From Klebsiella phage KPP2018, in sequence record NC_110934.1: a DNA stretch of 64,000 nt. The stretch is one strand, 5' to 3'. The notes below the pieces were generated by a model. It searched no databases, had not been told where the DNA came from, and saw only the letters and a program-made list of their open reading frames with translations. The position numbers were made by a program, and so were the translations under genes. Shown in pieces: positions 3,790 to 28,723 of this stretch. Position 1 is the stretch's first letter. Every line of letters starts with the position of its first letter.

Positions 3790-5106
3790 TTATTTACCAC
3801 GGGAAATAGAGTAAATTCCATAGCGCAGAGCATCACAAAGGTGAGAGTTAGCATCATGACGTGGTTTTTCACGTGATAATTTCTCTTCGCCTTCTTGGAA
3901 ATCCCACTTATAGTTCTGCAATGCATGAATTAATGAGGAACATGAAGCGTCTACAATAATCTTGCCCTGCTGGAATAGTGCTTGTAAGCATGCTAGACCG
4001 TCTAGGACAGACTTTTTAGCTGGAGCTGATGCAATTTCATGTTCATAAGCTAAGTCCTGGCGGAACTGAGCTGCGGCAGAGTCAACAAAAACACGATCAA
4101 CTTTATAACGATCTATACAGTGCTGAATATACGCAGCATGCTGAGCTGTGGTTTTCTCTGCCTGTTGGTACTCTTCTAATACATAGTAAGTATCCGTATC
4201 GTAATGATATTTAATAGTAAGAACTGCTGTAGGATCACGATAGCCAACGTCAATACCAAGCAACGTTTCGAATGCTTCATCATCTTTAAAGAAGTGACGC
4301 ATACCTTTAAGGTCTTTAACATGATCAATAGCATTAAAGGTATCGAAGATCTGACCTTCGAATACAGAGAAGTCAGCCTCGTATTCCTGACGGAAGTAGT
4401 TTTTACTAACTGTACGACGTGCTTCTTCGATGTCATTCAGATCAGCACGTGGATTATCACGATATGTACCATGAATAGATACCCAGTTAGGTAATGTATC
4501 ATCAAATCCATAGGCATAAAACTCTTTAAACCAGTTACCACCACGAGGAGTAGAGATAAATAGAGCCTTAGAATTAGGCTTATCTAGAGTAGGGCGCAGC
4601 TGAACCCTAAAGGCATCACCACCTACATCAGAAATTGCAGCCTCATCAAAGATGATAAAATCATATGAACGTCCAACTGCTGAGTCAGCCTGAGCAGCGG
4701 AAGCTAGTTTAAACAGTGAGCCGTTTGCCAGCTCAATTTCTTTATCTTTAGCATTCTCACGTTCGGTTTGTAGACCGTACTTTTTAATAAGACCACGAAT
4801 CTGAGACCATCCGATGTTGGCCAGTGAGTAGTTAGGAGCAACTACTAGCACCTTCACATTAGGTTCCAATAACTTTAGGAACCCAAGTGTGTATGCGATG
4901 AAGGATTTACCTACACGGCGTGATACACACGCCGTTACAAAACGATGTCTAGGGTCCTCTAAAGCATTAATAATTGCTATTTGAGGACCATTAGGTGTAA
5001 TACCTTCTTGTGCTAGTATTCCTGAAACAGGTAGACGAAAGAAACGTTTATCTATCCCGAAATCAATAACATCTACTGTATTAACGTAGGGTCTTGATAC
5101 TTCCAT
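3790..5106 (-). CDS. Terminase large subunit (438 aa)
   Basis: Walker A-like motif VTACVSRRVGKS, a DE acidic motif, and a C-terminal nuclease-type region. Its size matches T5 TerL. Confidence 0.85.
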   Translation of the reverse strand: MEVSRPYVNTVDVIDFGIDKRFFRLPVSGILAQEGITPNGPQIAIINALEDPRHRFVTACVSRRVGKSFIAYTLGFLKLLEPNVKVLVVAPNYSLANIGWSQIRGLIKKYGLQTERENAKDKEIELANGSLFKLASAAQADSAVGRSYDFIIFDEAAISDVGGDAFRVQLRPTLDKPNSKALFISTPRGGNWFKEFYAYGFDDTLPNWVSIHGTYRDNPRADLNDIEEARRTVSKNYFRQEYEADFSVFEGQIFDTFNAIDHVKDLKGMRHFFKDDEAFETLLGIDVGYRDPTAVLTIKYHYDTDTYYVLEEYQQAEKTTAQHAAYIQHCIDRYKVDRVFVDSAAAQFRQDLAYEHEIASAPAKKSVLDGLACLQALFQQGKIIVDASCSSLIHALQNYKWDFQEGEEKLSREKPRHDANSHLCDALRYGIYSISRGK

Positions 5107-9323: not shown

Positions 9324-9361
9324 TACCCGCTATTTATAAGCGGGTAATAATAAATCAACTA

Positions 9362-9754: not shown

Positions 9755-9819
9755 GTTTATAACTCCAATTAATTTAATAAGGGGTATAAGCGGGGTATAT
9801 ACCCCGCTTATAAATTTAA

Positions 9820-12062: not shown

Positions 12063-12235
12063 TTTTGAGCGAACGGATACGGGGAGGCCGCACCAACTGC
12101 TTTCGCAATCTCTTTTAAACCGTCGCTATTTGCAAAATCTAAACCGTTTTCATTGATTAACTGCTGGTACATGGTAACAGCTTTCTGGGTGTTTTCTTCA
12201 TTCCAGGTGAATTTTGCGGTTTTTGCGTTAGTCAT
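12059..12235 (-). CDS. Hypothetical protein (58 aa)
   Basis: ATG with upstream purine-rich RBS. Below the track length cut-off. Confidence 0.4.
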   Translation of the reverse strand: MTNAKTAKFTWNEENTQKAVTMYQQLINENGLDFANSDGLKEIAKAVGAASPYPFAQN

Positions 12236-12332
12236 GATATAAACTCCAATTAATTTAATTTAAGGGATTAGATTAACTAATGTTAATCGTTATATTCCCC
12301 ATATTTCAGGGGAATATAAAGTTAACACTAAT

Positions 12333-12584
12333 TTATAATACAGCTTCCCATTTTTCGTTGCGTTGAACAACCTTTACAACGTCGCCGGATTTAACGCGAA
12401 CGTTATAAATCGGCTTGCCGTTGTTACTGCGTTCTGTTTCAGCGTATACCGCATCGATTGTATCGAACGGCATAAGCGCCGCGCCTTTAATACGTTCGGC
12501 TTTTCCGGTTAACTCATCCGTTTTAGTAACGAAAGGAATAAAAACGGATTGACCAATTTTCGGCGCATTAGTAACGTTTTTCAT
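12333..12584 (-). CDS. Hypothetical protein (83 aa)
   Basis: ORF with RBS. Confidence 0.45.
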   Translation of the reverse strand: MKNVTNAPKIGQSVFIPFVTKTDELTGKAERIKGAALMPFDTIDAVYAETERSNNGKPIYNVRVKSGDVVKVVQRNEKWEAVL

Positions 12585-12813
12585 GGTATAAACTCCAGTT
12601 TATTCAGTGGATTGTTTCGCATTACCTGCTAAAAAGTATCAGGTAATAAGAAAAAATCCGCTCGCCATTATAAAATCAATTTAAAGAACTCCACGAAGGC
12701 CGCTATATCCCGTTAGGGGGCGGGGCACATTATGGTAAGTGCCGACCGTCAAATTGTATCAAGTTATCGCTCTTGTCGAACTGGGTACATCTTAAAGCCT
12801 ATCGGCTGGGGTG

Positions 12814-13014
12814 TCAAACAGTTTTTTGCGATTTTTTATAATTTTCCTTCAGGTCAATCATAATATTTCGCCAGACCATTTCCAGACCTTGCTGGCGGCC
12901 TTTCTTGTATTGCTTAAATCGGTATTTTACCGATCTTTGCGCTACTGTCAACAAATTTTTTGTTCTGCTGTCCAGTGCCTTGCTAGGTTTACCAGTGATT
13001 AAAAGCGTTTGCAT
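12814..13014 (-). CDS. Small basic protein (66 aa), putative DNA binder
   Basis: Lys/Arg/Gln-rich. Coupled by TAATG to the upstream 52-aa ORF. Lies inside an 18-bp inverted-repeat-flanked cassette. Confidence 0.45.
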   Translation of the reverse strand: MQTLLITGKPSKALDSRTKNLLTVAQRSVKYRFKQYKKGRQQGLEMVWRNIMIDLKENYKKSQKTV

Positions 13015-13172
13015 TATTTGAGATCCTCCAAAGCGTATAAACCTTTGCCATCATTGCAGATTATTACTGCTTCTGAATGATTGGCATAGTATTCGTTTGC
13101 ATTCTTTACCCATTGCTCGATCTTTTCGATCGTGTCGTGGGTAGCTGGATGATCGTTATATATTGTTGTCAT
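13014..13172 (-). CDS. Hypothetical protein (52 aa)
   Basis: ATG at 13172 with RBS. Upstream partner of the 66-aa gene. Confidence 0.4.
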   Translation of the reverse strand: MTTIYNDHPATHDTIEKIEQWVKNANEYYANHSEAVIICNDGKGLYALEDLK

Positions 13173-13273
13173 ATCGTCGATTCCTTATAATGTAATAAGT
13201 TTACCGCCGATAGGCTTTAAGATATACCCAATTTTTAAAGAGCGCGGCGGTAAACTTCCCGCCGTGTAGTTCG

Positions 13274-13459
13274 TCATTGCCGCCCTACGAGATAAATAAT
13301 AACAAACAACGAAAAAGGCGCAACCTTATTTTTGTAAAGAAATGTAAAGACAAACGCCACCGGACACCGTGCGGCGACCTGGGCGCAGCGCGTTAAAATT
13401 AAAAGAAACGGGCGCGCGAATACCACAAAACATAGCAGATAAGCAAGTAATTTTTTCAT
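13274..13459 (-). CDS. Small hydrophobic protein (61 aa)
   Basis: ORF only. Confidence 0.3.
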   Translation of the reverse strand: MKKLLAYLLCFVVFARPFLLILTRCAQVAARCPVAFVFTFLYKNKVAPFSLFVIIYLVGRQ

Positions 13460-13599
13460 TTATATTTGCTTTGCCCTACTTGACAAAATCTAAAAAGCTC
13501 ATGGCAGCGATAAACGGCTTATCCCCTTATGATGGGATGGCTAAAAACTTTATTGCGTTCTAGGGCGTTTTAGGCGCATTCTAGCCTTGTTGATAACTT

Positions 13600-14340
13600 A
13601 TCCCCAGAAGCAAAAATGAAATTTTCCTAGTTATCCACTTGACTTTTATTTTCCAGTGGATAACTACTTATTTTATAAAATAAATTAATTGACTTTTATT
13701 TGTTAGTATGCATCGGAAAGATAGCAGACTATTAATCACTAGGATGATGGTCATGCTGGTGGATTGTAACGGCCTGAATTATTAGCAGACTATTAATCAC
13801 AGAAAAACTCATTAGCCAACTAACTATTTCATGATATATAATATACTTATAAATTAATGAGAAATAATAACTATAAGAAATCATCACCAGTATAATAACA
13901 ACTATAAGAAATCATCACCACTATAATAATAACTATAAGAAACTATCGGCCTAAGTGAGAACCACTATCATTTAAGTTATCCACAACGTTATCCACAGCA
14001 CAAAATAATTTGACACGATAGGCGGCGATATGAGGGCTTTTACACAGATTTATCCACAGGTTATCCTACTGTATAAATATACAGGGTAAAAAGGCAGTGT
14101 TAACAACTGCAATCAATTTTAAGCGGCCTGAAACGCTTTCTAACGAGCTAAACGATGCGGGGCAATATTAAAGTAAAGACCCAACACGTCGCCCTGGTGG
14201 CTTCATCGTGTTTTGCTCTTTATTACACCGCTGCGCGGTTATCATAAAAATAGGCGTTAGGCAAGAAAAATAAAAAAGTAAAATAATCTTTGCCTATGCT
14301 AGAAAATTACCTTTATCATTCACTCACCGATTAACGAGGG
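13600..14340. repeat. Non-coding repeat and DnaA-box region, analogous to the T5 injection-stop / first-step-transfer boundary
   Basis: Three TTATCCACA DnaA boxes at 13987-13995, 13999-14007 and 14050-14058. A CTGT-N8-ACAG LexA-type palindrome at 14069-14084. Three copies of AACTATAAGAAATCATCACCA at about 31-bp period (13869-13950). Two copies of TAGCAGACTATTAATCAC. An inverted TTATCCACT...AGTGGATAA pair at 13631-13663. Confidence 0.6.
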
Positions 14341-14350
14341 AGGCCAACAA

Positions 14351-15328
14351 ATGCGGCTATATAAACCAGATAACGCAACCGTCTTAAAAGGTGCGCTGCG
14401 TAACCTGCTGGACGGTAGCAGAACAACCAGCATTAAGCACTTTGTTAACAAGGCCGAAGATATTCACCAAAATTTTTTTGATGATTTCGACGCCTATGAT
14501 ATGAGTAGTTTTTTGCAACTATATAAGCAAGGGGCAACCATTGTATTATATAATCGGGATAATCACCTGCTTACTAGTAGGGGTCCGGATACCGATTTCA
14601 TAATCGTAAAAGGTAGTATAGTAAAAGCCTATGATACTGGGGCGGGCTTAGAAGTTTTTTCAATAGAAAACTATGAAGCCAACCCCAATGATCTTTATGA
14701 TGTAGAAAATTTTCTCGATTCATTTTGGCGTTATTTATCAGTTGGCTGGAATCGGTCGGATTCTGATGGGTATCGTTTTGCGGCTGTAATGGCGTTTGAT
14801 GATGATGGCAATTTTTTGCTACCGTCGGAAATATACCCCTACGTATATGATGGGGATATAGAAAGCGCGGGCTTTTCTTTCTGGAAGGAGAAAGATCAGC
14901 CCATTGACAACACGGAAAAACATACTGTAAATTCTAGCACTCAAACTACTGAAAACAAAGGAAAAAATGCCATGACCAAGATCGCTAATATCGTTGCCGC
15001 CAATAAGTCTGCCGTTGTAAATGCTGCAAAATTGGAAGCGGGTAAAATTGCACTGACTCAAATTACGAAAGTAGTGGCTAAAAAAGCACCGTTCATGATC
15101 AAAGGCTATATTGATACGCCGATTGGTCGGGTAGTGATCGCTAACCTGCTAAGTGTAGCGGTTGACCAGTACGCCCCGAGTAACCAGAAAGCGAAAGCGG
15201 TAGCAAGCGCGGCAATGGAAGCGGCAATGTTAGAAATGGTGCAAAGTTTTAACATCGCTGAGATGATCGATGAAATGGTAAAAGGTATCGATATTTCTAC
15301 TTTTACCAATAACACCGAAAACGAGTAA
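14351..15328 (+). CDS. Hypothetical protein (325 aa)
   Basis: RBS GAGGGAGG. First gene of the plus-strand island. Confidence 0.6.
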   Translation: MRLYKPDNATVLKGALRNLLDGSRTTSIKHFVNKAEDIHQNFFDDFDAYDMSSFLQLYKQGATIVLYNRDNHLLTSRGPDTDFIIVKGSIVKAYDTGAGLEVFSIENYEANPNDLYDVENFLDSFWRYLSVGWNRSDSDGYRFAAVMAFDDDGNFLLPSEIYPYVYDGDIESAGFSFWKEKDQPIDNTEKHTVNSSTQTTENKGKNAMTKIANIVAANKSAVVNAAKLEAGKIALTQITKVVAKKAPFMIKGYIDTPIGRVVIANLLSVAVDQYAPSNQKAKAVASAAMEAAMLEMVQSFNIAEMIDEMVKGIDISTFTNNTENE

Positions 15329-15994: not shown

Positions 15995-16225
15995 ATGGTT
16001 GCATATTCTTCTTCTGACGCTCTTTTCACTGGAAAAGGCTGGGTATCTAATCGCTGGATTATTCAAGAAATGGTGCAAGAATACGGCATTGCTAAAACTT
16101 ACACTACCATTCAGGCGCTTTATGATAATGATCAAATCGATCAGCAAACGGCGGGCTTTTTGCTGGACACGCTGAAAGCGGAACACTGCACTAAAAAGCA
16201 AGCGGCAAAAATTATTTTAATGTAA
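15995..16225 (+). CDS. Hypothetical protein (76 aa); its 3' third is inside the duplicated block
   Basis: RBS GGAGG before the ATG at 15995. Its C-terminal 31 codons recur as an orphan fragment at 45594-45699. Confidence 0.5.
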   Translation: MVAYSSSDALFTGKGWVSNRWIIQEMVQEYGIAKTYTTIQALYDNDQIDQQTAGFLLDTLKAEHCTKKQAAKIILM

Positions 16226-16274
16226 TTAATAAAGGGGCGAAAGTAACGCCCCACTAACTAGGGGAGTATTACAA

Positions 16275-16424
16275 ATGATTATTTTTCGAGCTATTCTGGC
16301 GGGTATCTTGGGCGCTATTTTATCTTTGTTTGCAATAGCTTTCGATGTTCACGCGGTTATTATCGGCGCGGGTATCGCTGCATTTTCTTATCTGCTGGGC
16401 TGCATGACTAGTAAAGGAGAATAA
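16275..16424 (+). CDS. Small membrane protein (49 aa)
   Basis: Two transmembrane segments with an RBS. Starts a translationally coupled chain. Confidence 0.45.
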   Translation: MIIFRAILAGILGAILSLFAIAFDVHAVIIGAGIAAFSYLLGCMTSKGE

Positions 16425-16426
16425 AA

Positions 16427-16639
16427 ATGATCCGCAACGTTTCTCTTGCACGTTCGAAAGGCTTTAAGCTGGTGGATGCTAACACGTTCGAGCGGGAAGA
16501 TTGTAAAATCGAATATGTAGCACGTAACAAAAATGCCTTTCGTGTTACTGAGAAAAAATTTGATAAGCGCGGCAACGTGATCGCTGAAACGGTTAAGCAC
16601 TTTGCCACCTTTTACGCTGCGTTTCGTGGGGTACTATGA
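16427..16639 (+). CDS. Hypothetical protein (70 aa)
   Basis: RBS AAGGAGA. Confidence 0.5.
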   Translation: MIRNVSLARSKGFKLVDANTFEREDCKIEYVARNKNAFRVTEKKFDKRGNVIAETVKHFATFYAAFRGVL

Positions 16640-16776
16640 AAAGCGTTATCGTTATTGCCCTTGCAATGGTTGGCGGTTTTACCGCCACCTTATTCAAAAA
16701 TGACCCCATTTCATTGGGGATCTTTATGTTATTATCTGGCTATCTAATTGGGAGGTTGTCAAATGGTTATTTATGA
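16636..16776 (+). CDS. Small membrane protein (46 aa)
   Basis: ATGA overlap with the previous ORF and one transmembrane helix. Confidence 0.4.
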   Translation: MKSVIVIALAMVGGFTATLFKNDPISLGIFMLLSGYLIGRLSNGYL

Positions 16777-17107
16777 GGGCAATCGTTTTGTTGCTAATTG
16801 CCGTCCTGCATTATTAGCAAACTACTTAAATCAGCTTTCCCCAGCTTATAAGGGTGTTATTAATATTTATGAGGGCAAGGCGCATTATAAAATCAATGCG
16901 GTCGTTGCCCGTGAACTAGCATTTCAATTTTTGACCTTTGCATCTTGTGATATTCAGGTCATGGGGGAAGCATTAATTGCAGAAAATGAAGATGATTTTA
17001 TTAATATTTTCCGCAAGATATGCACCGAGCGGCTGATAATGAAAGGCGCGTATATTCAATCCACGGCTGATAGTATTGAAACAGCGTTTCGAAAGGTGGC
17101 GCAATGA
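16763..17107 (+). CDS. Hypothetical protein (114 aa)
   Basis: RBS GGGAGG before the ATG at 16763. The track start at 16748 has no RBS. Confidence 0.55.
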   Translation: MVIYEGNRFVANCRPALLANYLNQLSPAYKGVINIYEGKAHYKINAVVARELAFQFLTFASCDIQVMGEALIAENEDDFINIFRKICTERLIMKGAYIQSTADSIETAFRKVAQ

Positions 17108-17262
17108 AAAAGTTTTTAATAGCTGGCATGTTTCCGTTGTTGCCTTATGTAATTTGCTGGGCTTTATACGCTCATGGCGCTAGTGTTCCCGCTGTGGCTT
17201 CATTTGGTGTATCGGCGGGCTTTCTAGCTGGACTATTAGCAAGCGTATACTTACGCAAATAA
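17104..17262 (+). CDS. Small membrane protein (52 aa)
   Basis: ATGA overlap with the previous ORF and two transmembrane segments. Confidence 0.4.
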   Translation: MKKFLIAGMFPLLPYVICWALYAHGASVPAVASFGVSAGFLAGLLASVYLRK

Positions 17263-17281
17263 TTAATAATGGGGCGTTATT

Positions 17282-17476
17282 ATGAGCAATAAAATTGTTG
17301 TAACCAAAATCAGTACAATGGTTGATGTTTTTTACGTGCCCGATACGCCGGAAAACCGACAAGCGGTCGAGCGTGGAGAATATGATAAAGTGATTTATGA
17401 TCACGATGGTTATTATCAGCATTTAGTGGATTCCTACGGGGAGGAGGAGAAGATCACGCATCGACTACCAGACTAA
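17282..17476 (+). CDS. Hypothetical protein (64 aa)
   Basis: ORF. Confidence 0.45.
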   Translation: MSNKIVVTKISTMVDVFYVPDTPENRQAVERGEYDKVIYDHDGYYQHLVDSYGEEEKITHRLPD

Positions 17477-17479
17477 TAA

Positions 17480-19140
17480 TCACGGGGCGCAACTATCAGG
17501 AAGTGCCCCCAATTCTCAAATGAGAATGATTCTCATTTGACCGCGCCCGCGATGGTTAGCCTGCTAATGGTTAGGGTGTTACGTGTCGCCTTGTGTGATC
17601 GTTAGCGTGCTAACTAATTTTCAAGCCTCCTTCAATTTTGCCCTTGTTTTAGTATCCCCAACAAAATTAAACGCGTTAGAATGCGTTTGAGAGCGTTTTA
17701 ACGCTATATTAGAATTATTCACTGCGTAGGAATACTGTATATTTATACAGTAGGATAAGCTGTGGATAAGTCTGTTGATAACGCTTCAAAACGGCTAGAA
17801 TTTTGTCAAGTCAAATCGTGCTGTTAGTAAGTCTGTGGATAACTTAAATAACAGTGTTTCTCACTTCCGTTCTTAAATGAGAATCATTATCATTTGCATT
17901 TCACTATCTAACTAATAATCATTCCGCTTTTTAAATGAGAATCATTCCGCTTTTTAAATGAGATTGATTCTCATTCCGCTTTTTAAATGCGAATTATTAT
18001 CATTCTCATTCCGCTTTTTAAATGAGAATGATTCTTATTATCATTCGTATTTAGCGCAGGGCAATTGCCCTGCGCTTTTGTGCAAATCCGACATTGCTCC
18101 ACGGGTGTTACGTGCGGGCGTGTATGTGCGAATCCGACAATCTTTGGTAGTGTGCAAATCCGACCCGAAAAATTTTTATAGTGTGCAAATCCGACAATGA
18201 ATTTTCCCAAAAACTCCAGCAATCTCGAACTGCGTTCGAATCCTGTGGGGTATGTGCAAATTCGACACGGTTTTTCTAGGATTAAGATGTGCAAATCCGA
18301 CAAGATTTTTGTGACTTCGATTGGAGGGTGTGTGATTGTGTGGGTTTGGGGAGAAGATGAGAGAGCGAGAGAAAATAAGGGAAGAAACTGGAGGAGCAGC
18401 ATGGGTGGCGTGTAACGCCTGATTTGCTGCGTTTTTGGGGAAGAGTTGAGAAGATTTGGGTTAATTGGGCTTGGGGCGAGATAAAGTAAAATTTTATTAG
18501 CAAAATGGGGCAAAATAGCTTGACAAGTGAAAATTCCTGTGGCTCAGGTGCTGCGTACTTTGATACATGGCAGTGGTTTAACCTTAGCAATAATGCTGCT
18601 ATTTTCAGGAGATTATATGTGCCTAAAAACTTAGGCATTTGTGCAAATCCGACCATAAATTTCTAGAAACACAATGTGCAAATCCGACAGTAATTTCTGG
18701 AAATGTGTTTTCAAAAAATGTCTCCTAGAAATAACCGCCCTCCCTATAACCGCCCTGTATTAAACCGCCTAGTATATGTTCCTAGAAACTTAGGAGAACC
18801 GCCCACTAGAAGCGTGATATCTCGTGGGTATTTCGTGAGAACTCTGGAGTTTCTAGGAAAGTGTATGTGATCCTAGAGATGGGGAGCGGCAACAGGTGTA
18901 TCATCTTGAACACAGATATTGCCTTTAAATATATTCGTATGTTTTAAAAGTAAATGATCCCCCATTTCATGTGAGATTCCTCGTGGGGCGCGTGAGTATT
19001 ACGGAAGAACTCTAATATTGGCCCGCGCTAAGACTAGCCGCTATAGCACAGACGCAAATAGAGTTGTAATAATCATCGCCCCTAGAGTTCACAATAAGAG
19101 TTATTGTTAATCTATGAGATTATTATAACATACATTTTTA
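17480..19140. repeat. Iteron-rich non-coding region (candidate replication origin or regulatory hub)
   Basis: Eight copies of TGTGCAAATCCGAC (six at 18078-18304, two at 18641-18690). A 22-bp perfect palindrome GCGCAGGGCAATTGCCCTGCGC at 18053-18074. Five copies of TTCCGCTTTTTAAATGAGAAT(C/G)ATT at 17860-18050. A 21-bp palindrome AAATGAGAATGATTCTCATTT at 17517-17537. DnaA boxes in minus orientation at 17760-17769 and 17835-17843. A LexA-type palindrome at 17735-17750. TCCTAGAAA and AACCGCC short repeats at 18660-18880. Confidence 0.8.
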
Positions 19141-19146
19141 ATAACG

Positions 19147-19902
19147 TCAAGAAGATTTTGCTAACGTTTTTGGATTCTTCCTGGCTTTGAGATATATCCC
19201 TTTAGATGCTAGGTAAATATATGTTGCTAGGAATGAAGATTCTGATCCCGATTCCTCATAGGTTAACGTACCTCTAGGGTATTTATTTGTTTTAGGAGCA
19301 TAGTTAAGCACAGCCGCAGTTAATGATCCTAATCCTAGAACATCCGCAAGACGTCTAAAGGTATTCTCTTCATCATGAATAGCATAAAGAATGTTATCTT
19401 CAATATCCGTTAATGGAATCTTACGGATATGAGATACTGCAATCCGTGCTATCATAGCTCCAATTGTTTTATTAATATCCTCGAAAGAAACACTCTCCAT
19501 ATATTTTAGAGGGGGAAGATGGTCATATTTACATTTCTTAGGCGGAATAAGAAGTTGTTCAGGGTAAGCCTCTAGTGCCTGACGAACGTTTGCTTCTGGA
19601 TATGTTGGCAAAGGTTCATCTATAATAACATGTAAAAAGTTAGCTCTATGCCCTTTAGCAGTTGGATCTAAAGACTTGAGTACTTTATTCATATCCACAT
19701 ATGAATATGCTAGGTCTGCTTGAGGAGCATTAATATCAAACTTAATCTTCTTGCCCTCCCATTTAGCAGGGAACATCTCACAAACAAACATTACTGCATG
19801 TTTGACGTCTGGCTCTAGCTCTGATAGACATTTGTGATCTGCTGTTACTGCTAAAGCGAGTATATTCTTAAATTTATTAGCTTCTTCAATCATATATCCC
19901 AT
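19147..19902 (-). CDS. Hypothetical protein (251 aa)
   Basis: ORF. An identical copy lies at 48611..49366. Confidence 0.6.
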   Translation of the reverse strand: MGYMIEEANKFKNILALAVTADHKCLSELEPDVKHAVMFVCEMFPAKWEGKKIKFDINAPQADLAYSYVDMNKVLKSLDPTAKGHRANFLHVIIDEPLPTYPEANVRQALEAYPEQLLIPPKKCKYDHLPPLKYMESVSFEDINKTIGAMIARIAVSHIRKIPLTDIEDNILYAIHDEENTFRRLADVLGLGSLTAAVLNYAPKTNKYPRGTLTYEESGSESSFLATYIYLASKGIYLKARKNPKTLAKSS

Positions 19903-20231
19903 GCCTGCTGACTAGTATCACTAACTTGTGTCTTTTTCTCTCTTCGTGGTTTAAAAGTTCCTGTAGTATTACTTTTACTAGGTTCTAATTTATACCACAG
20001 CATTCCTAGCTGGTTAACCATATGAGCAACATTTCTAGGGGTCAATGGAGGTAGGGATTCACAGTTTGATATCTCTATTAATATATTAAATAATTCTGTC
20101 TCTTTAGCCTTACTGTTTACTACCACCACGTATTCTAATGTCTCTACCTCAGAATCCTCGTCTTTATAGTAAAGGCTAAGAGTAATTAAATTTTCCCCAG
20201 CAGGAGTTATTTTTGTTTTACCAAATATCAT
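19890..20231 (-). CDS. Hypothetical protein (113 aa)
   Basis: ORF. Confidence 0.55.
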   Translation of the reverse strand: MIFGKTKITPAGENLITLSLYYKDEDSEVETLEYVVVVNSKAKETELFNILIEISNCESLPPLTPRNVAHMVNQLGMLWYKLEPSKSNTTGTFKPRREKKTQVSDTSQQAWDI

Positions 20232-20845
20232 TAATTACCTCTCTTATCTTCATTAAGCGCAGCTCCCAACGCCTCCATAATAGCATCTTCTAAACTTCCA
20301 TGTTTACTAGGATCATTAAAATGAATAGCATAAACAGAACTCCTAGAAACTCCAGCATCCGCAGGTGCTACGCTTCGCATATCAGATTCAAAAGCTTCTT
20401 GAGTATGCTTTAACTGTACAGAAGGGCCGTAATCTTCACCAAACTTGTATGACTGCGTACTACTTATCACACCCCCACAAGGAACATTGTGCATATCCGA
20501 CATTAATCTTTTATCGGAGTTATTCAGCATTGCGATTGGCCCTGACTGCCACGGATCTCGAATAGTTACTGGAGTACTGGGGCGGTTCACTTCAGCCTTC
20601 ACAAGTTTGTACCCTGCATCGATTAATGCGTTAATTAGATTATCAGCTGGGATGCGAGCCTTGCCAAAAATCTTACGAGCATCTTCGAGCTTATCCTCAA
20701 GATCTTTACATGCTCTAAGGTCAGTGTGTGCAAATGTTAGCTTCATAGATTTAAATTGTACAGTAGCAGTTAAATCTTTAAAGCTATAATCCCATGTGTT
20801 CAGTTCATGATCCGGTACTACTTGAATAGGTTGTTGTGCAAACAT
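20231..20845 (-). CDS. Hypothetical protein (204 aa)
   Basis: ORF. Confidence 0.6.
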   Translation of the reverse strand: MFAQQPIQVVPDHELNTWDYSFKDLTATVQFKSMKLTFAHTDLRACKDLEDKLEDARKIFGKARIPADNLINALIDAGYKLVKAEVNRPSTPVTIRDPWQSGPIAMLNNSDKRLMSDMHNVPCGGVISSTQSYKFGEDYGPSVQLKHTQEAFESDMRSVAPADAGVSRSSVYAIHFNDPSKHGSLEDAIMEALGAALNEDKRGN

Positions 20846-21030
20846 TATATATTCTCCAGTTTGTCTAACAGTTTATGAGCTGCGATGTTATATTGAAAGA
20901 GTTCATTATTGAGAATTTCATTCTCACAGGTTAACTCTAGATTCTTAGTATTGAGGCGACTGCAAATCAGTATCAGTCCCAGGATTATTAGGAGTGAGCC
21001 TCCTAGTAATACAAGAAGTAATGTTTCCAT
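20845..21030 (-). CDS. Small membrane protein (61 aa)
   Basis: Transmembrane helix. Confidence 0.45.
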   Translation of the reverse strand: METLLLVLLGGSLLIILGLILICSRLNTKNLELTCENEILNNELFQYNIAAHKLLDKLENI

Positions 21031-21263
21031 TATTTAATTCCCATGTAACGTTTGAGATATCCGATGAAGTCTTCCGCTGTATGCTCTACGCTACCTTGAG
21101 CTACGAATAGCTTGAGAGCTTCACGTTGTAGTTTGAGAGCAGCTAACTCACCCCGTAATTTTATCAGATCTTCTGCTAGTTCTCTAGCTCTACGCATAAT
21201 AACAAAAGATACAAGTACTACGATGAATAACATAACTACTAAAATAATTGCTATGATTTCCAT
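21030..21263 (-). CDS. Membrane-anchored coiled-coil protein (77 aa)
   Basis: N-terminal transmembrane helix and an amphipathic helix. Confidence 0.5.
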   Translation of the reverse strand: MEIIAIILVVMLFIVVLVSFVIMRRARELAEDLIKLRGELAALKLQREALKLFVAQGSVEHTAEDFIGYLKRYMGIK

Positions 21264-21541
21264 ATTAACATCCAGCTTTTATCACACATTTGGGCATGGT
21301 CTATCAGTTCATTCATTGATGTATTGTTATCATAAATGCACTCTAGTATATACCTTCTATCAAATTCGTCAACCAAATATTCTACGTTATTTATTACTAC
21401 TTTATACAGATCTGGGACTAGAGAGCATGTATTTGGTACGGGGCGACTGCTTAAGTCTATTTCGTTTTTACCCCATTCTGTTTTAAATAGTTTGTTACTA
21501 AGTGCTGCTAATGGGTTTGACCACACAATATAGCTACTCAC
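21251..21541 (-). CDS. Hypothetical protein (96 aa)
   Basis: ORF. Confidence 0.5.
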   Translation of the reverse strand: MSSYIVWSNPLAALSNKLFKTEWGKNEIDLSSRPVPNTCSLVPDLYKVVINNVEYLVDEFDRRYILECIYDNNTSMNELIDHAQMCDKSWMLIWKS

Positions 21542-21980
21542 TATTTATCTCCCTTCTTAACTTTGAAAACTTATTATACCAAACTATATGATTATCGTCA
21601 ATTACAAATTTATGATAACATGCTGGCACGGTATAAGTTCCATAATCCGTGACACGCTGCACAACCTTGTGTGCACACAGTCGACAACCATGCCCTTCTA
21701 AATGAGATCTAGCAGTTTGCCAGTAATACCCTTCATGATCTGGGCAATAGATCTCGACTTGCTGTTGCATTGTTTTATAATTTACACGCTCATACCCAAA
21801 GAAAGCTCCATGAACTGCAACAGCTTTCTTGATAAATATAAGGTTTAGTGCTTCTTGCTGAAAGTCGGGATGTAGCTGCTTAATCTTAGTTCTATTAATA
21901 GATCCATCCGATTTGATAAACCTATTTATTGGGAAGTTGTTAGCTTCCTCGATTAGTAATTCATTTACTTTTTCTCTCAT
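21534..21980 (-). CDS. Hypothetical Cys/His-rich protein (148 aa)
   Basis: Start moved to the ATG at 21980 (MREKVNELL) to remove a 100-nt overlap with the upstream gene. Contains several Cys/His motifs. Confidence 0.5.
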   Translation of the reverse strand: MREKVNELLIEEANNFPINRFIKSDGSINRTKIKQLHPDFQQEALNLIFIKKAVAVHGAFFGYERVNYKTMQQQVEIYCPDHEGYYWQTARSHLEGHGCRLCAHKVVQRVTDYGTYTVPACYHKFVIDDNHIVWYNKFSKLRREINSE

Positions 21981-21981
21981 A

Positions 21982-22206
21982 TTAGATATTCTCACACCTA
22001 AGGTAGAAACATTCGTAAGCATCACCAGTAAACTCTTTACCTTGTAGTATACATTTAGCCTGGTCTTCTGGTACTCCGGCATCTAATAATTGTTGTTTAC
22101 TTGGCTTTTCAGCGAATACCTTTACAAAATATTCACCATCCTGATTATACTCATTTATATCTCTAGTAAGGACATATACTTGCATTTGAAATTCCTTGAA
22201 ACACAA
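21982..22206 (-). CDS. Hypothetical protein (74 aa)
   Basis: ORF. Confidence 0.5.
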   Translation of the reverse strand: MCFKEFQMQVYVLTRDINEYNQDGEYFVKVFAEKPSKQQLLDAGVPEDQAKCILQGKEFTGDAYECFYLRCENI

Positions 22207-22239
22207 AAGGCCAGAACAATTAAGTCCTGGCCTCTAGAA

Positions 22240-22611
22240 TTAATGAAGTTGTTTACCACTTCTTAACATAGTGGCCGTTTCCATAAGATTTAACGTTGTA
22301 TCACGCTTTTTGATTTGTTTGTCGAGTTCATCGGTGCGTTTGCCAATGTAAGCGTTAATAGCCATATTCATAGCTGAGGCGAGATCTTCTTTGGTTATCT
22401 CTTCATCATCTAAGGCTAATTTAGCCAAAGAATCGAACGCAATAGAAAGTCCTATAAGATCTGAGGTTTCACTAGCTAAGATGGGATCAATATTATCTAT
22501 TGTTACTTCTAACATAGAGTTAACAATATCTTCTCCGTCTACTAGACCAGATTCAATATTACTCTCCCATTCCTTCATCTGCTCCAGCAATGGATTTTTC
22601 TTTTCTGTCAT
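22240..22611 (-). CDS. Hypothetical acidic protein (about 123 aa)
   Basis: Start chosen at 22611 (MTEKKNPL) because it has an AGGA RBS. The track start at 22677 overlaps the upstream gene. Confidence 0.45.
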   Translation of the reverse strand: MTEKKNPLLEQMKEWESNIESGLVDGEDIVNSMLEVTIDNIDPILASETSDLIGLSIAFDSLAKLALDDEEITKEDLASAMNMAINAYIGKRTDELDKQIKKRDTTLNLMETATMLRSGKQLH

Positions 22612-23020
22612 GGTAGAGATTTCCTGTGTCAGTTGGTAAGAAGGACGATTGAGCTTTAGGTGGATGTTGTTTAGCAATCCAGTTAAGAATCAGCACACGA
22701 CTAGGAACAATATCAGTGTTGTACCAGAAATCGTGAACCCATTGACGAGCATCCTCAAACTTACCAAATTTATATGCTTTCTTAAACAATTTAAACCCAA
22801 AACAATCTGGTGTAAAGTCTACTTCACGATACTGAACTACTTTAGAACCGGTTAGGTCTTGGATTGCTGCATTAATTTCTGTATGAGAGAATTTTGTTTC
22901 GTGAAACTTATTAAAGAATCGGTAGTTGAAGCGTCCGTTCGTTTCGACAAACAACTGGATAAAGAGATCGTTAAATTGATTATCAAACCAGTAATTCTGT
23001 AGTTGTTGTAGTGCTGTCAT
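22559..23020 (-). CDS. Hypothetical protein (153 aa)
   Basis: ORF. Confidence 0.55.
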   Translation of the reverse strand: MTALQQLQNYWFDNQFNDLFIQLFVETNGRFNYRFFNKFHETKFSHTEINAAIQDLTGSKVVQYREVDFTPDCFGFKLFKKAYKFGKFEDARQWVHDFWYNTDIVPSRVLILNWIAKQHPPKAQSSFLPTDTGNLYHDRKEKSIAGADEGMGE

Positions 23021-23217
23021 TTACGAACTCCGTTAATTGCCACGATGATGCCTTCGTACATAAAAGGAAGTAGTTCAGAAGTGTAGAAGATATTTTCCGT
23101 TATTCCTAGATGTCGAAAAAGTATATTAAATAATGCTGTTAGAAATACAATCTGAGGCAGTAATACAAAATACTCAGTTACAATCTTTGGTGCCTGATAA
23201 ACAAGACGTTTTATCAT
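23017..23217 (-). CDS. Small membrane protein (66 aa)
   Basis: ORF. Confidence 0.4.
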   Translation of the reverse strand: MIKRLVYQAPKIVTEYFVLLPQIVFLTALFNILFRHLGITENIFYTSELLPFMYEGIIVAINGVRK

Positions 23218-23316
23218 TGTTTTTAAGTCTCCTTATTACTTTGGCCTGCTCCACAATAATAAAAACTGCAAGCACTAATAGTGCTATTAGCCCCGCAGTA
23301 ATTGGTACTAAATCAA

Positions 23317-23643
23317 TCATGGGAGACGCCATACGTAATTAGCTGTCTGTAGGATCTTAGGTGTGTCATTATGATACATTACTACAGACTTTGGTGAATA
23401 ACTATCAGCTAGTTCTTTACGAATCATCTTACATTCTTCACCAGTATCGATATTTTTAACTATCACTTTCATATTAAGAGGTGTTAATACAGAAAGTGGT
23501 TTCCAAGAGTCCTCAATTTCAATTCCTACCTTTTTCTCGATTAACATGAGAACTTCTAGTGTATCATCTGGAATACTAATATTATTATTCACAAACTGTA
23601 ATATCTCATGTAAGGTATTTAATTCATTAAAATTAAGCTTCAT
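23317..23643 (-). CDS. Hypothetical protein (108 aa)
   Basis: ORF. Confidence 0.5.
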   Translation of the reverse strand: MKLNFNELNTLHEILQFVNNNISIPDDTLEVLMLIEKKVGIEIEDSWKPLSVLTPLNMKVIVKNIDTGEECKMIRKELADSYSPKSVVMYHNDTPKILQTANYVWRLP

Positions 23644-23878
23644 CTTTAAGAATATCCTCTACCATATCACAAGACTGTTGCAATTCATCAGCAATACGTT
23701 TAATATCGGTTTTTGTTACTTTACCAACTAACATCACCAGTAACATAGAAAAGATAATAAGTGGAACTGGAATAACAAATAAAGCTACTTTAGCTACATT
23801 CTTTGGTGCCCATGTGTGGTATTTAGTAACCAGTACACCAACCACAATTAGATAAAACGCTAGAATAAACATCATCAT
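23633..23878 (-). CDS. Membrane protein (81 aa)
   Basis: Two transmembrane segments. Confidence 0.5.
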   Translation of the reverse strand: MMMFILAFYLIVVGVLVTKYHTWAPKNVAKVALFVIPVPLIIFSMLLVMLVGKVTKTDIKRIADELQQSCDMVEDILKDEA

Positions 23879-24156
23879 TTTTTAATCTCCGTAATTATCT
23901 GTGCGCGCATTACTTTATTAGGTAATTTTGTATTCCCAGCTATTGCTTCAATATTGTTTAGTTTTTCTTTTAGAATATCTGAGCGTCTTTGTGCTAGTTC
24001 AATATCTTGTTCTTGTTCTATTAAGCGGCAGTGAAGTCCACTATTAGTAGTAAGCATACTCTCCATATTTTTTCGCATGCTTACAATACCAATAATCCCA
24101 CCAATCGCTGCTAGTGTCATAAGAACTAGTAGTCCAATGAGAATTTCAGTTAACAT
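23875..24156 (-). CDS. Membrane-anchored coiled-coil protein (93 aa)
   Basis: Transmembrane helix and a heptad region. Confidence 0.5.
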   Translation of the reverse strand: MLTEILIGLLVLMTLAAIGGIIGIVSMRKNMESMLTTNSGLHCRLIEQEQDIELAQRRSDILKEKLNNIEAIAGNTKLPNKVMRAQIITEIKK

Positions 24157-24316
24157 TAAATACTCCTACATTTTTCGTTATCTGGGACTAATTTACACAT
24201 TTCTACTTTCAGTTCTTTTGCTGAGTTTTCTAGTTTAGAAACTTTATTGTGAATAAGTCCCAAAAATATCGCTTGGAAAACTACCATTATTGCTACTAAT
24301 GCTAGTTTATTCTCCA

Positions 24317-24586
24317 TTATTTCTTACCTTTCAGTTGCTTAACTTCACGCTCAAAAGATGCTGCACGACGTTCAGCAGTTGCCTGGTGCTCTTTCGCAAA
24401 ACGAGCTTCCTGTTTTGCGAGGTTGAATGCCATAGCATTCTTATTCAGAGAATCATACATCTTTTTCATTGCCGGAATAGACATCTTCATGAGCTGACCC
24501 TCAAAACCCTGCATGTCGAGGAGAATTGCCAGAACGTTAGCCATTTCGTTTTTAGTCATGTTTTCCATTAGAATTTCCTCTCTCAT
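24317..24586 (-). CDS. Hypothetical coiled-coil protein (89 aa)
   Basis: Consensus promoter cassette immediately upstream. Confidence 0.55.
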   Translation of the reverse strand: MREEILMENMTKNEMANVLAILLDMQGFEGQLMKMSIPAMKKMYDSLNKNAMAFNLAKQEARFAKEHQATAERRAASFEREVKQLKGKK

Positions 24587-24600
24587 TAATTTATGAACTT

Positions 24601-24629
24601 ATTATACAGAATTTTAAGGCTTAAAGCAA
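24601..24629 (-). promoter_or_regulatory. T5-early-type sigma70 promoter (TTGCTT-17-TATAAT) with a conserved leader and RBS
   Basis: Reverse complement reads TTGCTT, a 17-nt spacer, TATAAT, then ATAAATTAATGAGAGAGG ATG. Confidence 0.7.
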
Positions 24630-24646
24630 CTGAATTTTTTAATTAC

Positions 24647-25078
24647 TTACCAATCGTTAACAACGCCGGAGAACTCAGAAGCAAAAACTTTTTCAAATTT
24701 CTCTGCAATTTCAGGATGATCTTTGCAGATCAGCTCAATACAGGCTTCTGGAGTCATTCCTTCATCTTCAGGATCACCATAGTATTTATCCCAAAGATCA
24801 TCAGGAATGATATGCTCCGCCAAATCTTGGAAAGAGATTAACTGATAACGTTCTGCCTCCTCAGCGATAAGAATTTCGCACAGATCTTTATCTATATCGC
24901 TACGATAATCAGCAATTAATAGGGCATTGCAAGCATGACATTCCCAGACCATCAAACGTTCAGAGATAGGATTAGACTTATCTTGAACGTAAGACTGGAA
25001 CAAGGTTCGGAAAGTTGCCTTAACTTGTTCAAACTTATCTGCTGCTGCGAAAACTAGAGCTTTATCAACTTTGTTCAT
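24647..25078 (-). CDS. Hypothetical acidic protein (143 aa)
   Basis: Consensus promoter at 25109-25137. Confidence 0.55.
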   Translation of the reverse strand: MNKVDKALVFAAADKFEQVKATFRTLFQSYVQDKSNPISERLMVWECHACNALLIADYRSDIDKDLCEILIAEEAERYQLISFQDLAEHIIPDDLWDKYYGDPEDEGMTPEACIELICKDHPEIAEKFEKVFASEFSGVVNDW

Positions 25079-25108
25079 TTTGATTCCTTCTCATCAATTT
25101 ATAAAGTA

Positions 25109-25137
25109 ATTATATAGAAACTTAAGCATTTTAGCAA
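25109..25137 (-). promoter_or_regulatory. T5-early-type promoter (TTGCTA-17-TATAAT)
   Basis: Motif and spacing checked. Confidence 0.65.
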
Positions 25138-25245
25138 ATAAAACTTTTAATTAAAATGCCTAATCCTATGCCAATAGCAATACAAATGATTATAAGTATT
25201 GCTATCGCTTGTATGATTCGTTTAATAATAGCCTCAGCTATATAT

Positions 25246-25767
25246 TCAGACATTTAACATCCAGCTAGTTTTATCATGTGAGGTATACTTACCACTCATG
25301 ATGTCTTCCAGACGTACTGGTGATTTTGCATACTCGACACAAACGTTAATATAACGGGGATCCCCCATTAGCTCAAAGTGAGTATGCCCATGTAAGTTCT
25401 TCTTACCTCTCAGCTCCCCATGGTGTATTGGAGCATGGGAAAGCCAGAAGTTTTTATACTTAACTAGTGATTGTACATTATCTACAATCCCTATTAAGTC
25501 TTTGAAAGATAATCCTTCTCGTTCTAAGTCGTGGTTTCCCAAAACTAACGTAGTTCTAACATTGCCAAAGAGTTTTTCGAACTTCTCCAAACCATTTCTA
25601 GATACAAATGCGTCTCCTAAAATATAGAATACTGTACGCTTATCTTTCACGGATGTAATAGTATCCATAATAAATTCGTCATGCTCTTCCATAGTAGAGA
25701 AGATTGGTCTGAATTTAGTAATATTTGCATGCCCCAAGTGGAGGTCACTCCAAAAGCGAACTTTCAT
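25246..25767 (-). CDS. Metallophosphoesterase (calcineurin-like), 173 aa
   Basis: Motifs D-X-H, GDAF(V)SRNG and GNHD. Confidence 0.7.
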   Translation of the reverse strand: MKVRFWSDLHLGHANITKFRPIFSTMEEHDEFIMDTITSVKDKRTVFYILGDAFVSRNGLEKFEKLFGNVRTTLVLGNHDLEREGLSFKDLIGIVDNVQSLVKYKNFWLSHAPIHHGELRGKKNLHGHTHFELMGDPRYINVCVEYAKSPVRLEDIMSGKYTSHDKTSWMLNV

Positions 25768-26642
25768 TAAAGAACCCTCTGTACACCACAGCTATCTTCC
25801 CGGAGTGTAGTAAATGTGGTGATTTTACCCGTTTCATCGTTAACTTGCGCAACCGTCAACTGCCCGTTGAAAACACCGCCAGTATCAAGATAAACACGGT
25901 TTTTATAAAGAAGTGGGTAAGGAACCCCAGTATGTCCGTGAAACACGAAATCTACACCTTTAACTTCTGGCACTTCTACCATGTATTTTTCTTTAAATCC
26001 TGCATAACGCTGGAAGTACGGGTGTTCCTCACCATTTTTGGACAAGTAGAAGCCTATTTCTTGGACTACATCTCGATCCCATAAATATGGTTCAATATGG
26101 TATCCAGGATGGTCATGTGGGTCTTCCTTAGCTGCTTCTACTTGTGCAATAAGATTATCCCATACTGGGGTTTCTACTTCATTACCACATTCTTTGTACG
26201 TAAAAGGTACGCCACCGTGAACAACACCATACTTCTTACCACGATGTCTAACAGTTAAGAATACTGGCATTTTTTCAGCCATATCTTCGGCAATATTTTT
26301 AATGGTGTCTGCATCCAGCTCATCCATGGCCCACATACCACCGTTATACATCCAATTAGCCCAATCTCCTGCAATCATAAATTGGTCATGATTACCACGG
26401 ACACTGATAAAATGTGGATTATACAGGAATTTGGCTAAAACTTGTAGGTTTTGTGTGCCTCGGTCAATTAAGTCACCAACACATACTAAGCAATCTTTTT
26501 TGCCATTATACCTTGCTAATTTCAACGCATCTTCTAGCAAATCATTGCATCCATGAATATCACCAACGAAAAATAAGTTGGCGTCATCAGGCACTACTAG
26601 AGTTTTATGTACATTAAATTCTTTTTTCATAATTATTCCCAA
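25767..26642 (-). CDS. Ser/Thr protein phosphatase (PPP family), 291 aa
   Basis: Motifs GDIHGC, GDLIDRG and GNHD. T5-like phages encode one. Confidence 0.8.
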   Translation of the reverse strand: MGIIMKKEFNVHKTLVVPDDANLFFVGDIHGCNDLLEDALKLARYNGKKDCLVCVGDLIDRGTQNLQVLAKFLYNPHFISVRGNHDQFMIAGDWANWMYNGGMWAMDELDADTIKNIAEDMAEKMPVFLTVRHRGKKYGVVHGGVPFTYKECGNEVETPVWDNLIAQVEAAKEDPHDHPGYHIEPYLWDRDVVQEIGFYLSKNGEEHPYFQRYAGFKEKYMVEVPEVKGVDFVFHGHTGVPYPLLYKNRVYLDTGGVFNGQLTVAQVNDETGKITTFTTLREDSCGVQRVL

Positions 26643-26878
26643 ATAACAGTTAAAATAGTTGTGCCATAATCATTAGATAGTTGGAGAGTATAACCCTCTT
26701 TATAGAGGGCTTTTATAGCTTCATAACTAATTTCATCACGATTAAACTGTACAAAAGAACCTCCAATCTCCACGGAAGAAACTATTCTCTTTTTAACGTA
26801 TTTATATGGTTTCTTTCTACTCTTAAGGAGTGTAGCTCTATTTATTCTAGCTAAACGTTTTGCTTGTTCCGCTAACAT
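26633..26878 (-). CDS. Hypothetical basic protein (81 aa)
   Basis: ORF. Confidence 0.5.
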   Translation of the reverse strand: MLAEQAKRLARINRATLLKSRKKPYKYVKKRIVSSVEIGGSFVQFNRDEISYEAIKALYKEGYTLQLSNDYGTTILTVIWE

Positions 26879-26882
26879 TTAA

Positions 26883-27260
26883 TTATCTCCAGTGATTAGT
26901 ATGCTTCTCAGCTTCCTCATCGTTAGGCTCAAAGACAACATGGCAGTCAACTGCTTCCCAAAAAGCCTCACGGATTAAAGAGTTTTTAGCTGAAATGTCT
27001 AATTCTCCCCACTCTTCTAAAGTCTCTAGGTCTGTATCAACTTCGGTATCACAGCCAACCAACCCCAAAGAAACAACAATAGTAACGCGATCTTCACGTT
27101 GTTCGGGATAAACATCAGCATATTCCCAAGCAGCTTCTTCAACATAATATTGTTGTTCCTTTTCTGGAAGTGACTTATACTTTTCTTCTGTAATACCCAT
27201 CTCAACGGCGCGAGTACCACATACTACATTATTATTAATAATTAGATATGCATAGTTCAT
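26883..27260 (-). CDS. Hypothetical acidic protein (about 125 aa)
   Basis: Start moved to 27260 (MNYAYLI) behind a strong AGGAG RBS. Consensus promoter at 27370-27398. Confidence 0.5.
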   Translation of the reverse strand: MNYAYLIINNNVVCGTRAVEMGITEEKYKSLPEKEQQYYVEEAAWEYADVYPEQREDRVTIVVSLGLVGCDTEVDTDLETLEEWGELDISAKNSLIREAFWEAVDCHVVFEPNDEEAEKHTNHWR

Positions 27261-27369
27261 CGTAATACTCCTATTTCTTGAAGGGCAAAGAAAGCCATTA
27301 ATATGACTAAAATCCATACAAAGATATGTGACATAATCATATTAATGTCTCTCATCAATTTATATAAGT

Positions 27370-27398
27370 ATTATACCAAAATTTTTAGCAAAAAGCAA
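27370..27398 (-). promoter_or_regulatory. T5-early-type promoter (TTGCTT-17-TATAAT)
   Basis: Motif and spacing checked. Confidence 0.65.
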
Positions 27399-27407
27399 GT
27401 AAAATAA

Positions 27408-27434
27408 AAGCCTGATCAGCTAAGATCAGGCTTT
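27408..27434. terminator. Bidirectional rho-independent terminator hairpin
   Basis: AAGCCTGATC..GATCAGGCTT followed by a T-run on both strands. Downstream of the gene ending at 27440. Confidence 0.6.
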
Positions 27435-27439
27435 GTTTA

Positions 27440-28154: not shown

Positions 28155-28187
28155 AATATATACCTCTCTTAACTAATTTATGTATAT

Positions 28188-28216
28188 ATTATATAATAAC
28201 TAGGGCTAAAAGTCAA
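28188..28216 (-). promoter_or_regulatory. Sigma70 promoter (TTGACT-17-TATAAT)
   Basis: Motif and spacing checked. Confidence 0.6.
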
Positions 28217-28229
28217 CTACTTTTTTATC

Positions 28230-28715: not shown

Positions 28716-28723
28716 GTTATTAA

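Follow-up and report, generated by a model that had tools for sequence, protein, structure and literature searches.

A boxA-adjoining inverted repeat around the hdi cassette of T5-like phages: a possible leader–trailer RNA helix resembling that of rRNA operons

In Escherichia coli rrn operons, a defined order of elements leads into the structural RNA: promoter P2 is followed by the boxB hairpin, boxA (TGCTCTTTAACAA), 2 nucleotides (nt) and a leader strand (TATCAGACAATCTGTGTGGGCACT), which pairs with the post-16S trailer over 24 base pairs (bp), one of them G·U. According to the rrn literature, boxA is necessary and sufficient for the antitermination complex and an RNase III site lies in the leader–trailer helix. 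In the published model, NusB-bound boxA keeps the leader strand waiting at the RNA exit channel for the trailer, and the pairing of the two requires complementarity over more than 17 bp. Here we examine an inverted repeat enclosing a small gene cassette in a stretch of 64,000 nt of Klebsiella phage KPP2018 (NC_110934.1; the window, to which all positions refer unless another record is named), and compare it with the rrn arrangement. It belongs to the pre-early region, whose expression in T5, studied for decades, drives host DNA degradation, division arrest and second-step DNA transfer. The repeat itself (annotated in the T5 record AY587007) and the enclosed gene hdi (described in 2023) are already known. 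In a preprint by Davison, the T5 repeat is assigned to ‘Repeat Region 1’ and the region is called conserved, no function being proposed.

The window is from a T5-like phage (Tequintavirus), and the repeat locus lies in the left terminal repeat, the site of the pre-early genes; the region matches about 500 phage records. The left arm, ATCTTAAAGCCTATCGGC (12789–12806), has its exact reverse complement in the right arm (13206–13223), at a spacing of 399 nt. The perfect 18-bp inverted repeats around some 400 bp reported in the original prediction were thus borne out. Searching the 64-kilobase (kb) window for this sequence with up to three mismatches returned the two arms only (0.06 matches expected by chance), and they form the strongest gene-bracketing inverted repeat in 6–20 kb of the window. 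Beyond the perfect arms the match continues imperfectly, reaching 39 nt at 85% (12768–12806 and 13206–13244). By alignment of the window with AY587007 4485–5330, the arms are orthologs of ‘inverted repeat A’ (IRA, 4682–4706) and ‘inverted repeat A′’ (IRA′, 4950–4974), and their position is the same as in T5: they stand on either side of T5.008, in the interval from T5.007 to the large untranslated region. We also confirmed the two predicted open reading frames (ORFs) of 52 and 66 amino acids (aa); both lie on the minus strand, their stop and start codons overlapping in TAATG. No strand had been given for the element, and the functional unit (about 12768–13323) exceeds the span first proposed.

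On balance, we favour a reading in which the repeat is the core of an RNA leader–trailer helix that brackets the first cassette (52-aa ORF and hdi) of the leftward pre-early operon, in an rrn-like arrangement with boxA. The leader strand (13206–13232, minus strand) holds the right arm and the trailer strand (12780–12806, minus strand) the left arm; both were delimited by repeat search, duplex prediction, folding and consensus folding, and together they give 27 bp. Repeat search and folds further identified an outer helix segment, AAGAGCG (12768–12774, minus strand), whose pairing partner is the initial 7 nt of the boxA region (13238–13244). In a 541-nt sense transcript, the helix was present in both the minimum-free-energy and the centroid structures (−178.3 kcal/mol, z = −11.7, compared with z = −6.7 for the antisense transcript). 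RNAalifold applied to seven diverse units predicted it independently. An Rfam scan of 12200–14400 (E ≤ 1) gave two chance-level matches only, both outside the element.

We then analyzed the conservation of pairing. About 90 related loci were reduced to 42 flank-inclusive haplotypes and 22 distinct arm pairs; several of the counts below rest on alignments built in this analysis, from which one bulged base of the trailer of Klebsiella phage pzk-kv7 (Sugarlandvirus) was removed beforehand. Among the 22 arm pairs, standard pairing was found in 97.8% of cells when the gene-sense strand was read, and in 90.9% for the antisense strand. Both-sided changes were found at 15 of the 27 pairs, and none of 500 shuffles reached the observed values. 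One-sided changes in the core were strongly asymmetric when read on the sense strand: 30 G·U cells (8 pairs) against 3 A·C cells (3 pairs), one-sided transversions being absent. In contrast, flanking non-coding columns were not biased by strand (alleles: G·U-type 40, A·C-type 46, transversions 92), and against this full flanking spectrum, G·U-type changes at 8 or more of 11 sites had a probability of 5.5e-4. The sense duplex was the more stable one in 41 of 42 haplotypes, with means of −44.4 kcal/mol against −39.4 kcal/mol for the antisense duplex. Sense-strand covariation and the G·U bias support an action of the arms in sense-strand RNA.

Across lineages (Epseptimavirus, Sugarlandvirus, Myunavirus and a metagenome), the arms form a helix of 24–28 bp whose complementarity is kept through sequence change. 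Epseptimavirus arms show a compensated U-A to A-U change, and phage fp01 has gained an additional A-U pair by one inserted base in each arm. Between pzk-kv7 and T5, about 10 helix positions differ, all compensated except the one bulged base. The metagenome contig L085 carries a perfect 25-nt arm pair of unrelated sequence. Pectobacterium phage My1 carries two tandem units whose arms, of 25 nt and 28 nt, differ in sequence: unit 1 (arms 818–842 and 1081–1105 of that locus) lies around My1_014, and unit 2 (arms 1121–1148 and 1476–1502) around an Hdi-like ORF and My1_012. A local hairpin (13197–13209 with 13245–13257) was also considered and rejected as a conserved sense-strand helix: it is absent from both minimum-free-energy folds and not conserved in pzk-kv7, L085 and My1, and when its five one-sided variants are read on the sense strand, four of them give A·C.

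The trailer strand has a second identity at the DNA level. A promoter scan and the T5 alignment identified there the promoter of the next unit, T5.007-A2-A1 (TTGACA-17-TAAGAT, 12789–12817, minus strand), an ortholog of the predicted T5P1, whose annotation maps to window 12763–12829. Its −35 hexamer overlaps the hdi stop codon, and its spacer and −10 hexamer lie inside the trailer strand. The same holds in the relatives: the 3′ arm always contains promoter spacer and −10, and the −35 adjoins or overlaps the last cargo gene's stop codon. The corresponding promoters are TTGACA-17-TATTAT in pzk-kv7, TTGCAA-17-CATAAT in L085, and TTGACA-17-TATGAT and TTGCAA-18-TACTAT in My1. A −10-like hexamer is found in the 3′ arm of pzk-kv7, My1, L085 and the DT571/2-like phage L063, in a shared register except in L085.

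Because the trailer is a promoter, the main rival explanation is a DNA-level one, in which the arms are inverted copies of a protein-binding site or of a core-promoter segment, kept alike by selection or gene conversion. They could constitute an operator pair through which pre-early transcription is turned off in an A1/A2-dependent way, or a promoter with an inverted pseudo-promoter. Such an element would fit the coincidence, in every lineage, of the 3′ arm with promoter spacer, −10 and start region, the high conservation of arm sequences inside genera, and the report that T5 A1 dampens transcription from pre-early promoters. However, a duplex DNA site does not predict the strand asymmetry of one-sided changes (G·U in the sense strand) described above, and complementarity outlasts complete sequence replacement in L085 and My1. 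There is also no reason for a DNA site to place its 5′ arm always directly after boxA. Finally, the inverted copy lacks a usable −35: an antisense promoter sought at the 5′ arm was discarded, with no acceptable −35 hexamer and with single-base indels inside the −10 in two lineages (pzk-kv7 and My1 unit 2). We therefore regard the DNA-level explanation as quite improbable.

The leader strand is directly preceded by a boxA-like site, GCTCTTTAAAA (13233–13243, minus strand), found by consensus scan as a perfect match to GYTCTTTAANA, the gamma-proteobacterial boxA consensus of Baniulyte et al. (2017). The sequence GCTCTTTAA(A/C)A precedes every 5′ arm by at most 4 nt, with a perfect consensus match in all ten phage lineages listed, and it is kept perfectly across four genera while the adjoining arm sequences diverge. 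We read this boxA as a Nus site because of the perfect, conserved sequence match and the geometry; its RNA, CGCUCUUUAAAAAUUGG, would be the binding site of NusB/NusE. Additional copies accompany the downstream transcripts. A second boxA occurs 10–25 nt after the trailer in Epseptimavirus, Sugarlandvirus and the L083–L085 contigs, and in My1 the unit-2 boxA directly follows the first trailer while a third lies about 80 nt after the second trailer (at 1586), before the T5.007 homolog. Each extra boxA would sit early in the next transcript, after an arm with a good promoter. A literature search of incomplete coverage found nothing linking boxA with T5, pre-early genes, T5-like phages, Tequintavirus or Demerecviridae.

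In the whole window, the boxA consensus has four matches against 0.73 expected. The other three are at 34049–34059 (plus strand), 63513–63523 (plus strand) and 42774–42784 (minus strand), the first two being one site in two copies of an 18.4-kb repeat. This direct repeat (16120–34536 and 45594–64000; 99.85% identity, offset 29,474 bp) reaches the window end, and its flanking segments are colinear with Tequintavirus genomes; a large tandem duplication, or else an artefact of assembly, is what it resembles.

Directly 5′ of boxA, minimum-free-energy and consensus folds place a GC hairpin, CGGCGG-GAAGUUUA-CCGCCG (13245–13264, minus strand), in the position of the rrn boxB. A further alternative is an RNA helix that works without Nus factors or RNase III. 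Base pairing between the 5′ untranslated region and the 3′ end would then stabilise the short hdi mRNA towards RNase E and 3′ exonucleases, or tune translation of a toxic protein, the boxA-like motif being incidental or having some other use. The covariation and strand-bias evidence fits this explanation equally, and the dosage of Hdi, a toxic protein, may matter. Against it stand the perfect conservation of boxA in four genera beside diverging arms, and the hairpin-boxA-helix spacing, which copies that of the rrn leader. In addition, E. coli RNase III would in general be expected to cleave a perfect duplex of this length, about 27 bp. Taken together, a helix of this kind appears unlikely to us.

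The proposed arrangement requires transcription from upstream of the hairpin. Prediction indicates a candidate sigma-70 promoter of the hdi unit at 13296–13323 (minus strand), TTGCGC-16 nt-TATTAT, with an upstream A-tract as in other T5 promoters. In 40 haplotypes, both hexamers are conserved and the spacer is variable, and pzk-kv7 carries the same hexamers. From the TATTAT −10 through boxA, Klebsiella Sugarlandvirus and the window phage share 97.5% identity, the remainder having diverged. This promoter and the leader are overlapped by a 61-aa ORF annotated in some records (13274–13459, minus strand; phrog_17446), which we rejected as probably no gene: its ATG is AGG in T5, and a 21-nt deletion lies inside it in T5 and chee24. 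A terminator scan found no intrinsic terminator at the hairpin and boxA, nor after the trailer.

A third promoter lies inside hdi (TTGACA-16-TAAAAT, 12924–12951, minus strand). Identified by promoter scan and T5 annotation, it is the ortholog of T5 P-H22 (T5P2), which is active in vivo in T5. It is near-consensus, so many transcripts probably begin within hdi and read into the downstream genes. Neither P_H22 transcripts nor those initiated at the trailer promoter contain the leader strand, and the helix cannot form in them. The predicted T5P1 may be the same as the experimentally defined P_D/E20, for which the sources differ: one T5 record has P-D/E20 on a fragment adjoining the trailer (window 12441–12763), and a 2026 preprint has it partly overlapping hdi.

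The following sequence of events could be envisaged. Host RNA polymerase would start about 45 nt upstream of the GC hairpin and transcribe the hairpin and the consensus boxA. NusB/NusE, bound to boxA, would together with NusA, NusG and SuhB turn the polymerase into an rrn-type antitermination complex, resulting in Rho resistance and faster elongation. The 27-nt leader strand that directly follows boxA would remain tethered at the RNA exit while the cassette loops out during synthesis, and the emerging trailer strand (at the DNA level, spacer and −10 of the next promoter) would pair with it at once. Judging from its length and near-perfection, the duplex of about 27 bp would be a likely RNase III substrate. 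Cleavage would yield a discrete hdi mRNA with paired ends and would cut the downstream T5.007-A2-A1 message off from read-through RNA. Possible benefits include fast, Rho-resistant transcription, a discrete and stable hdi mRNA, and uniform 5′ ends of the A2/A1 message.

Several points weigh against this reading. The upstream promoter of the hdi unit is predicted only, and its −35 hexamer agrees with the consensus at 3 of 6 positions. The site-level G·U test is weak against transitions alone (P = 0.07), and the sequences are related, so that G·U counts are non-independent events. Pairing is also imperfect in places: A·C mismatches occur twice in the DT571/2-like phage and once in L082, phiR2-01 has a C·C, and My1 unit 2 combines an A·C with a bulge. 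As the boxB-like hairpin does not vary, it offers no covariation, and it is not evident in My1; Tequintavirus lacks the second, post-trailer boxA of the other genera. Conservation of the trailer could follow from its promoter function alone, and ribosomes terminating 8 nt before the trailer could hinder pairing. Lastly, no benefit is established for bracketing an mRNA with a helix. Should the reading be wrong, the finding would come down to a known gene flanked by a repeat that had been annotated before.

Among the Demerecviridae examined (Tequintavirus, Epseptimavirus, Sugarlandvirus and Myunavirus), every locus that reaches far enough upstream of the T5.007 homolog has the unit in this place, and both arms are conserved in about 90 related loci regardless of cargo. 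Scans of metagenomes and IMG/VR yielded few further distant relatives beyond L083–L085 and the Sugarlandvirus loci. This distribution argues strongly against the first suggestion of the original prediction, in which terminal inverted repeats delimit a miniature mobile element or a homing cassette. Like elements of the MITE (miniature inverted-repeat transposable element) type, the unit has short inverted repeats around a few hundred bp, and its small cargo varies (hdi alone, 52-aa gene plus hdi, or a 52-aa-type gene alone). Unlike them, it has neither multiple copies (two arm copies only in 64 kb), empty sites nor a target-site duplication. The bases outside the 18-mers continue the inverted repeat, and thus no direct duplication flanks it. 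The search for presence or absence of the 435-bp unit revealed a single polymorphism, the 52-aa ORF inside the unit, with arms unchanged; gene swaps happen within unchanged arms, which overlap promoter and leader. A mobile or homing element is therefore hardly credible.

We further analyzed the cargo. The 66-aa protein (12814–13014, minus strand) is the homolog of T5 Hdi (T5.008), with 82% identity over 65 aa (E = 8e-40), and matches Pfam DUF7416 (E = 1.4e-34). Hdi is a host division inhibitor that targets FtsZ and is toxic if expressed alone (Mahata et al. 2023). The accessory 52-aa ORF (13014–13172, minus strand; phrog_21018), defined by its reading frame, homologs and codon-position variation, belongs to a small family confined to T5-like phages and matched no Pfam family. 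Both ORFs are preceded by a Shine-Dalgarno sequence, AAGGA upstream of the 52-aa ORF and GGAGG nine nt upstream of the hdi ATG. Variation falls mostly in third codon positions (21/15/36 at positions 1/2/3 for the 66-aa ORF and 1/2/11 for the 52-aa ORF). The 52-aa ORF is absent from T5, Th1 and most relatives, where the hdi start codon replaces the 52-aa start codon and both arms and both flanks are kept unchanged. Conversely, the DT571/2-like phage L063 has a 52-aa-type gene and lacks hdi.

These data bear on the idea of a hairpin-bounded regulatory unit such as a toxin–antitoxin or repressor pair, in which the 52-aa protein would neutralise or regulate Hdi. The overlap of stop and start codons and the toxicity of Hdi alone would suit such a pair. 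Nevertheless, the two genes do not co-occur obligately, as those of type II toxin–antitoxin systems do: most T5-like phages, T5 included, have hdi without the 52-aa gene, and L063 shows the reverse. Of the structure predictions suggested for the two peptides, that of the 52-aa protein was made, and its AlphaFold model was of low confidence (predicted local distance difference test score, pLDDT, 61.6), too low for a fold search. A toxin–antitoxin or regulator–effector pair thus seems very improbable; the notion of a bounded regulatory unit survives at the RNA level.

Some observations concern the neighbourhood of the unit. Between trailer and T5.007, a highly conserved non-coding stretch of about 175 nt (12590–12765, minus strand) includes hairpins in which changes seem to be compensated, e.g. 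GGCACTTACCATAATGTGCC vs GGTGCTTACCATAATGCATCC. On the other side, the non-coding region 13500–14350 between the divergent pre-early operons contains DnaA-box-like TTATCCAC motifs, three 31-nt tandem repeats (13863–13955) and orthologs of T5 IRC, IRD and IRB′. It corresponds to Davison's Repeat Regions 1 and 2 merged, the T5 homing endonuclease gene hegG being absent here. Just downstream of A1, in the same operon, we also noticed an 18-nt inverted repeat (9332–9349 and 9798–9815, 89%) whose arms, 448 nt apart, likewise leave room for a gene.

In a broader proposal, the first transcription units of T5-like phages would imitate host rRNA operons: an N-independent boxA would capture the rrn antitermination/chaperone complex, a boxA-anchored helix would surround the host-takeover cassette, the trailer would be the next promoter, and several units could follow one another, My1 with its two units and third boxA being an example. 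We advance it tentatively and hold it slightly less probable than its opposite. If the boxA and leader–trailer reading is right, a virulent phage would recruit the host Nus/SuhB antitermination complex without an N-like protein, and the design of the rRNA processing stem would be reused for mRNA. The broader scheme, if true, would be the first case of rrn antitermination and leader–trailer logic on protein-coding phage messages, and could explain fast pre-early expression followed by processing or shut-off. The boxA and leader–trailer reading would also explain the difficulty of cloning or deleting the locus. Under this reading, the gene swaps of the cassette take place inside a fixed RNA frame.

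Compared with described systems, the T5 IRA/IRA′ pair of Repeat Region 1 is directly orthologous: its flanking genes are those of the window, and the predicted T5P1 lies over IRA; it differs in enclosing hdi alone, with 243 nt between 17-nt arm cores. Lambda nut sites are similar in that a phage early-transcript leader carries a boxA recruiting host NusB/NusE, and we take the nutL boxA to resemble the motif found here. In nut, however, boxA precedes boxB and phage N is needed, whereas the present unit has the rrn order, hairpin before boxA. An N-like protein is not known here, no search for an N homolog having been made, and nut lacks a bracketing helix. At bacterial non-rRNA boxA loci, a consensus boxA likewise protects or regulates a transcript without phage N protein; these loci are bacterial, and no leader–trailer helix has been described for them. 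In the early region of T7, host RNase III cuts the polycistronic RNA of a virulent phage into defined messages. The T7 sites differ from the present locus in being local intergenic hairpins, with no long-range helix around a gene and no boxA.

The closest likeness is to E. coli rrn. Promoter (in the phage a predicted one), GC hairpin, boxA and leader strand stand in the same order, and the helix brackets the whole product. The phage boxA hardly differs from that of the rrn spacer, GCTCTTTAAAAATCTGG. The phage helix starts 0–4 nt after boxA (2 nt in rrn) and spans 24–27 bp with G·U pairs. That of the window, with its 27 bp against the more than 17 required, starts directly after boxA and shows covariation. 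The 16S leader–trailer duplex also extends back into boxA, and with this extension the energies are similar (42 pairs and −59.3 kcal/mol in E. coli, 41 pairs and −60.3 kcal/mol in the window). Two differences set the phage unit apart: its cargo is a translated mRNA of 250–410 nt with one or two small ORFs, whereas that of rrn is a 1.5-kb structural RNA, and its trailer strand doubles as the sigma-70 promoter of the next unit.

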